Assembly: GCF_017348835.2 (NCBI RefSeq)
Contig: NZ_CP072314.1
Strand: one strand, 5' to 3'
From: Escherichia coli
Lineage (GTDB): Bacteria > Pseudomonadota > Gammaproteobacteria > Enterobacterales > Enterobacteriaceae
Length of the DNA stretch: 60,072 nt
Of the stretch, positions 15,001 to 18,000 are shown in pieces; position 1 is the stretch's first letter, and each line of letters opens with the position of its first letter. Position numbers: made by a program.

Positions 15001-18000
15001 TCAGCACCACGGCAAAAACGCATTCACTGTCCGGCACGTCTGTATCCAGTACATCGCGGATGATTTCTTTAACAGTACAGTACATGTTCTCGTCTCCTTT
15101 ACAGGGGCGGCATTGCCGCCCCGTCCGTTAATCAGTCCAGTGCCGCGTAAATCGCGTTGCATTCAGGGTGAAATTCGATGTGACGCCACAACTGCGCATC
15201 GCGCATCCGGTAAAGCTGGGTCAGTCCCGCATCCCCGCTGTCGTGGTACAGCCACAACTGGCGGTTAATCACAAGGGAAGTCAGAATGATGCCTGCGGCA
15301 TCAGCACTCACGGTACGGTCAAACCAGTTTGCACCGTTCACCATGTGGAAACGGTCGCCATCCGGCATCATGTAACCGCCACCGTCCGGCAGGCGGATGA
15401 AGTGCCAGAAACCTCCCTGATATTCCGGCATCATTTGTTTCGCCAGCGCGTATACAGACGCTTCGGCATACAGAAAATCCAGGCCAAACAGGTAAGGCAG
15501 AAAAGACAGACGGTCGCACTCTTCAACGTTCAGAGTGACAGGTTTCGCATACTGCATGGGATTTCCTCCGTTGTTCACATATTCCGCGACACCGGGCGGT
15601 GCCGTGCCTCCATAAAAGCCGGGCGATAAGGCGGGGATGCAGGGGAGCAAGGGAAGCCGCAGCCTGACGCACTCGGCTGACGGGAGTTGGAGGGTGATAC
15701 CGCGAAATCTGAGCGGGTGAACGACCGGAAAATCACGGCAGACGGGAAGGAGGGACCGGGTGACCGCAGCGGCGAAGCGTACCCTTGCATCAACGCCAGC
15801 CCGGCTAAGATGGAGGCACGGCACAGCCCGCACACGACGCTGAGGCCACATAACTGAGATGTCTACTGTATGCTATTAACAAATGTCTCATAACAGCGAG
15901 ATGAATACTTGGGAGTTATCGCTCAAGATAATGGGACAATATGTAGCATACAGTAGCTTACTGAAGCTTCGGATTACGTTTGATGATATTAAACGCGATG
16001 TCCCTGCCACTCCTCATTTCCTGATATTCCAGATAACCAATTTCTTCCAGCTGCTTTAGAGCTTTCTTAATGGTGGCATTCTGCAGTGCAGTTCTGGATG
16101 TAAGGTTGAGACGTTCGCGAAAACGCTTAATACTAACTGGAGCAGGATTTGTGGGCAGACCTTCCAAATAGAGATACAGAGCCTGAGCAGACTCCTTACG
16201 AGCCAGGCTTTTTAGCGCTTTTAGCTTGAGCAGGACTTTATACTCACTGGCGTAAAGATCTTTTAAAGACATACTGGGTGTAAGCAGAACAAGATCATTA
16301 CCAATGTCTATTGTGGACTCCCCCATGAGTTGCACCATCTGCGTCTTCTCTGTTGGTTTCCCGGAGTCTTTCGAAAATTCGACAATTGTGGACATAATCT
16401 TCTTTATCGAGTCTTTCAGGCGAGTGCGAAGTTCCTGTTTCATCCTCCCCCGTGGGAATCCGCAGCGATGCGCAAATTCGCTGAAAGGTATCACGATTTT
16501 TCCTTCTTTGGTGATCGGATGATCACTGTCTGTCAGAACGGAAATTATGCCAACCCAAACTTTAAAATCAGTGTCCATATCAAGTCGGGGACCACTAATA
16601 ATGACCTTCTCGAATCCCTCAGAGCTGTAGAGCGAAAGCGTATTAAAATCTTTCGAAGCATCAACGGTATTGCGGGTAATTTTAGCTTTATCGGTCCCTT
16701 TAAGAGTCGGGACAAAAACACCAAGGCGCATCAACGGAACTACCTGAACACTGGACTCACTTGTGGATATAAGCGTGAGCTCTTCTCCCGTTCGCTTGTT
16801 AATTTCCTTGATATTCAGGAATTGTTCATTGATTTTATTAGACATTTTATTTCCCTGTTTAGTGTGAACAAAAAATATCTTAGTAGCTCACAGTAGACCT
16901 TATGGTAGCACATAGTAGACCTTTTGTAGCACTCAATAGATATTATGTCGCATACAATAGACATTATGTAGCACACAGTAGACATTAATCATCTATGAGA
17001 CCAGTAACGGAGCGGCCTGCAGCGATCGGGGATCTTCTAGGATCTCTAAGGGTCTATATGGATATATTTATTGGATCTAGCCAGTGGAAAAAACTAAATC
17101 AAAATGTCGCATACAGTAGACTTTACCTAATCCGCCGAAAAACCCTGTCCTTCAGAGCAGAGCGGATATCAACTCACAGGGTTATGCACCGGTTCTGTGG
17201 ATAACACGCATCTGTTTTGTTCGCCAGAACAATCACCTGGCATGGCAGCGTAAAATTCAGCTTGCGGAATGGAAAATATCTTAAATTATACTGTATATAT
17301 AAACAGGTATTTAAAGAAGTATACCATGATCCTTTTTGTTCCAGCGGCACCTGAACCAGAACTATCTACCGCACCACTTTTCACCGAACGTTGCCCAGCA
17401 GGTTTTCCGTCACCGGCCGCAGACTACACCGAAGACGAACTGGATCTGAATGCCTACTGTATCCGACGTCCGGCTGCAACTTTCTTTGTCCGGGCCATAG
17501 GTGATTCGATGCAGAATATGGGGTTGCACTCCAGTGATCTGATGGTGGTCGATAAAGCTGAAAAACCACTGCAGGGGGACATCGTTATTGCTGAAATTGA
17601 CGACGAGTTTACTGTCAAACGCCTGCAGCTTAAGCCCCGTATTGCCCTGCTGCCGATGAATCCAGCCTACCCCACCCTCTATCCGGAAGATCTGCAGATT
17701 TTCGGGGTAGTGACGGCATTCATACACAAGACGCGTGAGGTACGCTGATGTTTGCGCTCGCTGATGTGAATTCATTTTATGCCAGCTGCGAGAAAGTATT
17801 TCGACCTGATTTGCGAAACAAGCCGGTTGTGGTACTCAGTAACAATGATGGTTGCGTTATCGCCCGTTCAAAAGAAGCGAAGTTGCTGGGTATCAAAATG
17901 GGGGTGCCGTGGTTTCAACTGAAGAAGGCGGAATTCTCTGAGCAGATCATCGTGTTCTCAAGCAATTACGAGCTGTACGCGTCCATGTCTAACAGGGTGA

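Follow-up and report, generated by a model that had tools for sequence, protein, structure and literature searches.

F-like plasmids are multi-replicon as a norm. In RepFIB of F, P307 and pO157, the Rep gene is flanked by the BCDD' iterons upstream and the E-K iterons downstream. The replicon of the P1 prophage plasmid consists of oriR (DnaA boxes, GATC heptamers and five iterons), repA and the incA iterons; classical P1 is Dam dependent, and its incA locus acts by handcuffing. RepFIA of F comprises repE, ori2 and incC together with sopABC and ccdAB.

The locus described here lies in a 60,072-nt stretch of Escherichia coli plasmid DNA (contig NZ_CP072314.1), referred to below as the window. 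We consider it highly probable (about 0.85) that the window carries a complete theta-type, iteron-controlled replicon of the RepFIB / P1-RepA family, which represents a distinct, rare lineage and is second to IncFII on an F-like plasmid. It is a real but ordinary second replication unit, a rare and uncharacterised branch of a well-known family; a literature search found no paper describing this rep lineage.

The rep gene and its iterons

The first-pass annotation had placed an iteron-type replicon at 15861-17125, with five tandem iterons upstream of a Rep_3 gene and more copies just downstream, a range that matches the outermost iterons. The features found are as follows.

15861-15876, plus strand: downstream iteron in opposite orientation to the origin iterons (GTCTACTGTATGCTAT on the plus strand; 1 mismatch)
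15943-15958, minus strand: downstream iteron oriented like those of the origin and adjoining the stop codon of rep (2 mismatches)
15958-16845, minus strand: rep, a Rep_3 (WH1+WH2) initiator of the RepFIB/P1-RepA family, 295 aa
16846-16882, minus strand: leader of rep; AGGGA, 7 nt 5' of the ATG, resembles a Shine-Dalgarno (read from the sequence)
16883-16989, minus strand: the origin iterons, five in tandem with a period of 21-22 nt; in rep sense the core is GTCTACTGTRTGCTAC
17106-17121, minus strand: sixth, outer iteron, past the DnaA-box-like site (1 mismatch to the core)

Both winged-helix domains of the Rep_3 iteron-binding initiators, WH1 and WH2, are detected in the 295-aa Rep above the curated Pfam cutoffs: Rep3_N (PF01051) with E 4.8e-9 and 37.2 bits (cutoff 22.4), and Rep3_C (PF21205) with E 1.2e-4 and 22.7 bits (cutoff 21.1). 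An identical protein, WP_000066222.1, is annotated as 'RepB family plasmid replication initiator protein', and similarity matches carry the annotation 'RepFIB replication protein A'. Full-length similarity to characterised members of the RepFIB / P1-RepA family is clear, at 45% identity (E 6e-81) to the Rep of F RepFIB and 46% (E 3e-87) to RepA of the P1-like phage phi456, and identity rises to 67% with a Klebsiella plasmid Rep (CP137925.1). No NCBIfam model matched Rep, and a PDB sequence search gave no match at E up to 1. The rep leader is kept in the Cronobacter relative. A consensus scan in and near the iterons gave no plausible rep promoter, and by eye only weak candidates were seen.

The iterons were searched for across the whole 60-kb window with the 16-nt core GTAGCAYACAGTAGAC, allowing up to 3 mismatches and using shuffles as the control. 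Nine matches were observed against 0.42 expected, every shuffle giving at most 2, and all but one of the nine fall within 15861-17121; the exception, at 17452-17467 inside umuD with 3 mismatches, is probably due to chance. The periodicity of the tandem array is equally plain, since Tandem Repeats Finder reports a period of 21, 5.0 copies and a score of 124 at 16883-16987, with start-to-start spacings of 22, 21, 21 and 21 nt in a repeat search. The array lies 38 nt upstream of the rep ATG, so that rep has beside it the array of ~20-bp direct repeats typical of Rep_3 replicons, and tandem origin iterons are also present in the Yersinia, Cronobacter and Klebsiella relatives. Neither outcome that the first-pass annotation had named as grounds for rejection, a Rep that fails to align with Rep_3 initiators or repeats lacking significant periodicity, was observed. 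The sixth copy, which spans 17106-17127 in the repeat search, is kept in Cronobacter and weakly in Yersinia.

Iterons thus lie on both sides of rep and in both orientations, as in RepFIB and P1. The downstream copies claimed in both orientations are there, but only one of each, so that the downstream set is minimal. The iteron at the stop codon occupies the same position in Yersinia, Cronobacter and phi456. One downstream iteron fewer is present in the E. coli version than in Yersinia and Cronobacter, a copy that has been lost. Homology of the replicon to the Cronobacter relative ends near 15851, ~10 nt left of the inverted iteron, the alignment diverging beyond ...CATCTCAGTT, and the limit of the common F leading-region DNA is at about 15857-15860.

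The origin core and the IncFII replicon

Distal to the tandem iterons lie the elements of the origin core.

17020-17080, no strand: array of GATC / AGATCC heptamers and an A+T-rich stretch, comprising four GATC and two degenerate heptamers at ~10-nt spacing
17083-17091, minus strand: DnaA-box-like site TTTTCCACT, at the family-conserved position beside the heptamers
17196-17204, minus strand: exact DnaA box, sequence TTATCCACA, with the origin on one side and the umuD promoter on the other

The GATC-rich segment noticed in the first-pass annotation is the densest such cluster of the window: its four GATC sites (17024, 17031, 17041 and 17074) make 17024-17077 the sole place with at least four GATC per 70 nt, against a window mean of 1.9 per kb. 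Two further heptamers have lost their GATC, as judged from the origin-core alignment. The A+T content reaches 68-70% at 17040-17099, and the heptamer array is presumably the opening and Dam/SeqA-controlled region. The DnaA box at the conserved position reads TTTTCCACA in Cronobacter, Yersinia and Klebsiella and TTATCCACA in phi456 and F-RepFIB, whereas in the window it is degenerate (TTTTCCACT). Only two exact DnaA boxes occur in the window, at 17196-17204 and 40254-40262. The former sits 105 nt further out than the degenerate box, just outside the annotated range, and its Cronobacter counterpart is CTATCCACT. It may or may not be part of the origin, a region that probably runs ~80 nt past 17125.

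The proposal of a RepFIB-like layout is borne out by the alignment of the origin core (DnaA box, AGATCC heptamers and CGATCGCTG) with F-RepFIB, the P1-like phage and the Klebsiella relative, at 70% mean column identity. A DnaA box and GATC heptamers distal to the iterons, as in RepFIB and P1, are thus present, with the box at the conserved position degenerate. An Rfam search gave no match within 15.8-17.3 kb, which argues that the iteron replicon has no antisense-RNA control.

By homology with P1 and RepFIB, we propose that Rep monomers would bind the five in-phase 21-22-bp iterons beside rep and, together with host DnaA at the nearby DnaA box or boxes, would open the A+T-rich GATC-heptamer segment, where Dam methylation and SeqA sequestration would restrict re-initiation. 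Rep bound to the origin iterons would also repress rep. The outer sixth iteron and the two iterons past the stop codon may form a small copy-control and incompatibility locus, which would titrate Rep and, in cis as well as in trans, pair with the origin iterons by handcuffing. The sequence data establish the anatomy, the family membership, the conservation and the purifying selection; the activity of the replicon we infer.

The second replicon named in the first-pass annotation, repA2-copA-repA1 at 40.4-41.9 kb, is of the IncFII type.

40254-40262, minus strand: exact DnaA box, downstream of repA1
40438-41307, minus strand: repA1, IncFII-type, given as the longest ORF (IncFII_repA Pfam match, E 1.5e-26)
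41380-41468, plus strand: CopA antisense RNA (Rfam RF00042, 98 bits; gathering score 60)
41595-41852, minus strand: repA2/copB regulatory gene (RepB-RCR_reg PF10723, E 6.5e-33)

A relative's annotation implies a GTG start for repA1 at 41295, and a tap-like 24-codon ORF overlaps the repA1 start, so that repA1, CopA, repA2/copB and tap are all represented. The DnaA box at 40254-40262 lies where, by comparison with R1/R100, an IncFII origin would be expected. The plasmid therefore has two replicons, as claimed, but calling it cointegrate-like adds nothing, because several replicons are usual on F-like plasmids and rep sits in a conserved maintenance backbone. Any assignment of plasmid replication to one replicon or the other would be inferential.

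Distribution, conservation and rival explanations

The lineage is rare: it is carried by 3 of 72,556 plasmid records (PLSDB) and 3 of 5,426 complete E. coli genomes, and it also occurs in draft assemblies from E. coli, Yersinia and Cronobacter. The Rep ORF is intact and identical in many assemblies (81 contigs). Rep of Yersinia enterocolitica and of Cronobacter share 92.5% and 96.6% amino-acid identity, respectively, with that of the window, and both have the same replicon architecture. At the nucleotide level rep is 78% identical to the Yersinia copy, and the iterons, heptamers and Shine-Dalgarno are conserved despite this divergence. Compared with Cronobacter, rep has a dN/dS of ~0.07; in the comparison with Yersinia pN is 0.047, with saturation at synonymous sites. 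As estimated from these comparisons, rep is under strong purifying selection across three genera.

The setting is also constant. In all contexts seen, the replicon lies among toxin-antitoxin genes, parAB, umuDC, ori, rep and an F-type leading region. In E. coli, Yersinia and Cronobacter alike, rep occupies the distal end of the conjugative leading region, shares its strand with ardA/ssb/psiB and adjoins an Frpo-like hairpin. An IncFII replicon is also present in all three complete E. coli carrier plasmids, and the iteron replicon has therefore never been seen as the proven sole replicon. Sufficiency of the iteron replicon alone had been considered from the 'IncFIA'-only typing of pPE164 and NZ_CP027439.1 and was dropped, both having an FII region: repA2-tap-repA1 is intact in NZ_CP027439.1, and in pPE164 the region is present at 99.4% identity, yet only a 31-aa RepA fragment is annotated, which may be a sequencing error. 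We likewise rejected the possibility that the window represents circular pPE164 wrapped around, as segments are shared but rearranged and ~16 kb is missing from pPE164.

It is conceivable, though we think it unlikely, that the iteron replicon is silent or vestigial, that IncFII replicates the plasmid, and that the RepFIB-like unit is kept for incompatibility or competition or by hitch-hiking. Consistent with this are the FII replicon in every complete E. coli carrier, the degenerate DnaA box, the downstream iteron lost from the E. coli version and the consensus scan that recognised no rep promoter. In addition, the plasmids of ETEC O169:H41 persist after an IS removed rep and most of the origin, the sixth iteron being still there. 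There is also precedent in the defective FIB of F, which is crippled by a single weak RBS (PMC11983097), so that the intact appearance of the window replicon is no guarantee of function. However, the ORF is intact and identical across those 81 contigs and is held by strong purifying selection in three genera. That iterons, heptamers, Shine-Dalgarno and ORF have all been kept, the first three in the face of the divergence from Yersinia, is not expected of a decaying remnant. A complete second replicon thus remains our preferred reading. More speculatively, the replicon might define a separate incompatibility type, with copy control by a convergent iteron pair or triplet at the 3' end of rep plus the outer iteron, and with a leading-region position by which Rep supply or origin firing might be coupled to establishment after transfer. 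We regard this as improbable; in this reading a minimal element would take the place of the incA/E-K arrays, of 6-9 iterons, that P1 and RepFIB have.

Two other origins can be weighed against the same data. MOB-suite typing in PLSDB assigns NZ_CP114129.1, NZ_CP038392.1 and NZ_CP027439.1 to 'IncFIA', which would make this a replicon of the F RepE/ori2 type, and its place beside the leading region with par and toxin-antitoxin genes is that of RepFIA on the F map, where partition and addiction genes accompany it likewise. With no repE annotated in pPE164, the window-type rep is probably what the label refers to. The first-pass annotation had proposed both RepFIB and RepE as references for Rep, and only the former holds: RepE shows no similarity to Rep in BLASTP (best E 6.1, against 6e-81 for F RepFIB Rep), and tblastn of RepE on the 60-kb window gives no match, while it is to origins of the FIB/P1 type that the iterons and the origin core can be aligned. 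The 'IncFIA' label is unsupported by the protein comparison, and the reading as an IncFIA replicon is refuted at the level of sequence, with next to no chance of being correct. Capture of a P1-like phage-plasmid replication module by an F-like plasmid, or cointegration with it, is very improbable. Rep is about equally near P1-like RepA and F RepFIB, and the origin core resembles that of phi456, but umuDC, parAB, toxin-antitoxin genes and the F-type leading region form the flanks in all contexts and phage genes are absent. A Rep identity of 46% indicates ancient common ancestry and not recent capture.

The value of these observations is mostly practical, in that a rare RepFIB/P1-family replicon lineage is documented on what is otherwise an ordinary multi-replicon F-like plasmid. 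Current automated typing as 'IncFIA', which in one carrier also misses the co-resident FII, is a possible source of error in plasmid epidemiology, in host ranges inferred from the replicon and in curing-cassette design. The small downstream iteron set, for its part, offers a natural minimal case in which to test iteron handcuffing models.

Comparison with RepFIA, P1-like, Klebsiella and RepFIB replicons

RepFIA is functionally analogous, with a Rep_3 initiator, origin iterons and downstream control iterons, and differs in that the window Rep has no detectable similarity to RepE. With phi456 the window replicon shares five upstream iterons at 21-22-nt spacing, an iteron directly behind the rep stop codon with inverted copies further on, and an alignable DnaA box and AGATCC heptamer array. 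The iteron cores of the two differ (TGTTGACTATACGCGA against TGTCTACTGTRTGCTAC), and the window iteron pattern (at most 3 mismatches) has no match in the P1-like locus. The downstream iterons number 2 direct and 4 inverted in phi456 against 1 and 1 here, and the setting is a phage in one case and a plasmid in the other.

The nearest relative outside the 90%-identity cluster of the window Rep is that of a 238-kb MOBH plasmid of Klebsiella pneumoniae (CP137925.1, typed IncFIB by MOB-suite), a replicon that we suspect to be PlasmidFinder's IncFIB(pNDM-Mar) type. It shares with the window replicon the iteron core GTCTAYTGTATGCTAC, in five tandem upstream copies, as well as the origin core, an iteron adjoining the stop codon, and downstream iterons both direct and inverted. 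Unlike the window replicon with its 2 downstream iterons, it has at least 6 over ~850 nt, and its MOBH backbone is of another kind.

RepFIB resembles the window replicon in its tandem iterons directly upstream of rep, in having others downstream in both orientations, in its alignable origin core with a DnaA box and GATCC heptamers, and in its role as an extra replicon on F-like plasmids with FII. In RepFIB, experiments identify the downstream iterons as the controlling, handcuffing set and the upstream iterons as the origin set (PMC11983097), and by analogy this model should apply to the window replicon. The latter has 2 downstream iterons against about 6-7 in RepFIB, an additional iteron past the DnaA box, a Rep of 295 aa against 325 aa, and an ATG start against the CTG reported for FIB. 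Its iteron pattern (at most 3 mismatches) has no match in the F RepFIB locus, and Rep specificity and incompatibility are therefore probably distinct. Judged by the Rep identity of 45% and by iterons that are not those of F-P307, the window replicon is RepFIB-like but not RepFIB, and it probably falls outside the IncFIB group proper.

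The initiator gene, its iterons and the origin

We identify the iteron replicon at 15861-17125 as one of the RepFIB/P1-RepA type, a reading to which, its inferred mode of action included, we assign a probability of roughly 0.85.

Features of the iteron replicon, its neighbours and the IncFII-type second replicon (window coordinates)
15132-15560, minus strand: ArdA-like antirestriction gene
15861-15876: downstream iteron, inverted (core search)
15943-15958: downstream iteron, oriented as the tandem set and abutting the rep stop codon (core search)
15958-16845, minus strand: rep, open reading frame of 295 aa
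16883-16989: five head-to-tail iterons, starting 38 nt upstream of the rep ATG; start-to-start 22, 21, 21 and 21 nt
17024, 17031, 17041 and 17074: four GATC sites between the five-iteron array and the sixth iteron
17083-17091, minus strand: DnaA-box-like TTTTCCACT, adjoining the heptamers, one base off the relaxed DnaA-box consensus
17106-17121: sixth, outer iteron, beyond the GATC segment (core search)
17291-17306: LexA (SOS) box, CTG-N10-CAG, upstream of umuD
17326-17748: umuD (Peptidase_S24)
40438-41307: repA1 (IncFII_repA, E 1.5e-26)
41380-41468: CopA RNA (98 bits)
41595-41852: repA2/copB (PF10723, E 6.5e-33)

The Rep protein matches the Pfam domains Rep3_N/WH1 (E 4.8e-9) and Rep3_C/WH2 (E 1.2e-4), both beyond the curated cutoffs, and aligns with the RepFIB initiator of F over 284 residues (45% identity, E 6e-81), which upholds its first-pass annotation as a Rep_3 initiator. 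It is 46% identical to RepA of the P1-like phage phi456 (E 3e-87) and 67% identical to Rep of a 238-kb Klebsiella MOBH plasmid (E 2e-139). With Rep as the tblastn query, PLSDB and a phage collection yielded RepFIB-annotated genes in the thousands, at 44-46% identity, along with RepA genes of P1-like and SSU5-like phage-plasmids.

The five tandem iterons reported upstream of rep were recovered by Tandem Repeats Finder with a period of 21, 5.0 copies and a score of 124. They share a 16-nt core, GTAGCAYACAGTAGAC on the plus strand or GTCTACTGTRTGCTAC in the sense of rep; with up to three mismatches tolerated it has 9 matches across the 60-kb window, where chance would give 0.42 (shuffles never gave more than two). 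The match at 17452-17467, inside umuD and with three mismatches, we regard as chance. Downstream copies do occur in both orientations, as first described, but there is just one iteron each way.

Nowhere else in the window do four or more GATC sites fall within 70 nt (mean 1.9 per kb), so the GATC-rich segment previously noted, here 17024-17077, is unique in its density. The sites are set within AGATCC-like heptamers spaced by about 10 nt, followed by a stretch of 68-70% A+T. Only two copies of the exact DnaA box TTATCCACA exist in the window, one beside the IncFII replicon, downstream of repA1 (40254-40262), and one at 17196-17204, about 75 nt past the end of the range first reported. The replicon was confirmed within that range, but the origin region probably reaches slightly further right.

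A two-replicon plasmid and its backbone

All three components of the proposed repA2-copA-repA1 replicon at 40.4-41.9 kb were matched, together with a tap-like leader ORF and the exact DnaA box. Local tblastn found no third initiator gene of RepE, FIB or FII type in the window, which therefore represents a two-replicon F-like plasmid; two replicons are the usual condition for this group. Wherever the unit was seen in E. coli, the gene order is ParE/Phd and RelB toxin-antitoxin genes, parA, parB (KorB-like), two small ORFs, umuC, umuD, origin, rep, ardA and the conjugative leading region. From rep to the leading region this order is preserved in the Yersinia and Cronobacter contigs, which have different partition genes; umuDC also lies beside the origin in one Yersinia contig. 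Because the replicon unit sits in one recurring backbone, it is an integral maintenance module, not an obvious scar of recent cointegration. In other words, the two replicons of the earlier "cointegrate-like" description stand and the qualifier is unnecessary.

An IS3-family element cuts off the umuC-like gene (IMS family) at 18416; in relatives this gene is intact, with 424 aa. A long imperfect hairpin (15593-15830; 32-nt arms, 88% complementary) separates the replicon from the ArdA-like gene. It folds as single-stranded DNA at -68.6 kcal/mol (z = -5.2; 0/200 shuffles fold as well) and looks like an Frpo/ssi-type single-strand promoter of conjugative leading regions. In a 5.38-Mb E. coli record (OU349844.1, 3403-10888), the TA-parAB-umuDC-ori-rep module adjoins lambdoid prophage genes without a leading region, either as a plasmid segment integrated in the chromosome or through misassembly.

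Two inverted IS pairs, at 18377-19686/48805-50114 (1310 bp, 99.5% identity, Rfam ALIL frameshift pseudoknots) and 24636-25895/45165-46424 (1260 bp, 100% identity, Rfam "isrC" matches), enclose segments that are inverted or rearranged relative to the E. coli plasmid pPE164, which suggests IS-mediated inversions. That plasmid lacks any counterpart of window 1-12713 and 56463-60072. Two direct copies of a 2165-bp leading-region segment are present (12714-14878 and 54298-56462, 99.95% identity); one runs on into ardA-rep, whereas different sequence follows the other. Virulence-type cargo at 28005-34069 comprises an IpaB/EvcA-family gene, which near-identical plasmids list as espT, and a SPATE-like serine-protease autotransporter of 1327 aa, just upstream of which lies a group II intron domain match (29610-29687; Rfam, 54 bits).

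Distribution, selection and activity

By DNA comparison, the rep-iteron unit occurs in only 3 of 72,556 PLSDB plasmids and in 3 of 5,426 complete E. coli genomes; its carriers are pPE164 (pig), pDEC5B-4 (O55:H7) and an unnamed plasmid of strain 2012C-4221. An identical protein (WP_000066222.1, "RepB family plasmid replication initiator protein") is encoded on 81 contigs; clustering at 90% identity also brings in proteins of Yersinia enterocolitica and Cronobacter, whose Rep identities are 92.5% and 96.6%, respectively. Both relatives keep the full architecture of outer iteron, five tandem iterons, stop-codon iteron and inverted downstream iterons, including a second inverted copy missing from the E. 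coli version. Selection on rep is strongly purifying (against Cronobacter, dN 0.016, dS 0.231, ratio about 0.07; against Yersinia, pN 0.047, with synonymous sites saturated at pS 0.82).

On the left, Cronobacter similarity ends about 10 nt beyond the inverted iteron at 15861-15876, and there begins sequence that thousands of F-like leading regions share. From 17098 rightward (outer iteron, exact DnaA box, umuDC, parAB) the window is shared with ETEC O169:H41 plasmids, which have an insertion sequence in place of the remaining origin and rep; in one of them (NZ_CP024227.1), 2559-4163 matches window 17098-17260. In pEntYN10-type ETEC plasmids these same elements are all that is left of the module, and the IS abuts the exact point of loss. 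What these ETEC plasmids carry is the same replicon in decayed form.

Judged from its sequence, the replicon is probably a working one. The rep frame is intact, purifying selection extends across three genera, and iterons, heptamers and Shine-Dalgarno are conserved despite the 78% nucleotide identity of the Yersinia rep gene. Against this, or neutral to it, an FII replicon accompanies the unit in every complete E. coli carrier, the DnaA box at the conserved position shows an A-to-T change compared with the other genera, E. coli has lost one downstream iteron, and a search recognised no rep promoter. F's own FIB replicon provides a precedent, in that one weak translation signal can be enough to disable a unit of this kind (PMC11983097).

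Mode of action and relation to known replicons

By homology we infer Rep binding, origin opening, autoregulation and handcuffing for this replicon, whose anatomy, homology and selection are established here. We propose that Rep monomers would occupy the five in-phase origin iterons, the 21-nt period equalling two helical turns, while DnaA would bind the adjacent box or boxes. The A+T-rich GATC-heptamer segment would then open, with re-initiation restrained by Dam methylation and SeqA sequestration, and Rep sitting on the origin iterons would repress rep. The outer iteron and the two at the rep 3' end may act in cis and in trans, titrating Rep and handcuffing the origin, and thereby set copy number and express incompatibility. 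The same model is applied to P1 incA. For RepFIB it has experimental support: there the downstream iterons are sufficient to displace a FIB replicon, whereas the upstream iterons fail to do so (PMC11983097).

MOB-suite typing in PLSDB assigns "IncFIA" to all three carriers (NZ_CP114129.1, NZ_CP038392.1, NZ_CP027439.1) and omits the intact IncFII replicon of the last (record 77400-78808). We reject an IncFIA identity: Rep is RepFIB/P1-like and without similarity to RepE (RepFIA) of F (best E 6.1), and the pPE164 annotation contains no repE, so the label should not be read as family membership. RepFIB proper is rejected as well, since Rep identity is just 45% and the window iteron pattern was not found in the F RepFIB locus; nor was it found in the phi456 locus. 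A Rep-iteron specificity of its own is very probable for this replicon.

Protein, layout and origin sequence nevertheless all place the window replicon in the RepFIB/P1-RepA type, as its RepFIB-like layout had indicated. Repeats flank rep on both sides and in both orientations in F RepFIB. Phage phi456 likewise has five upstream iterons at 21-22-nt spacing, and downstream an iteron straight after the stop codon, one further direct copy and four inverted; the Klebsiella relative shares the iteron core of the window replicon, with five copies upstream and at least six downstream. The origin cores of these replicons align at 70% mean column identity in a common order of DnaA box, (A)GATCC heptamer series, conserved CGATCGCTG motif and iterons. 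The replicon is a rare and uncharacterised representative of a kind that is thoroughly known.
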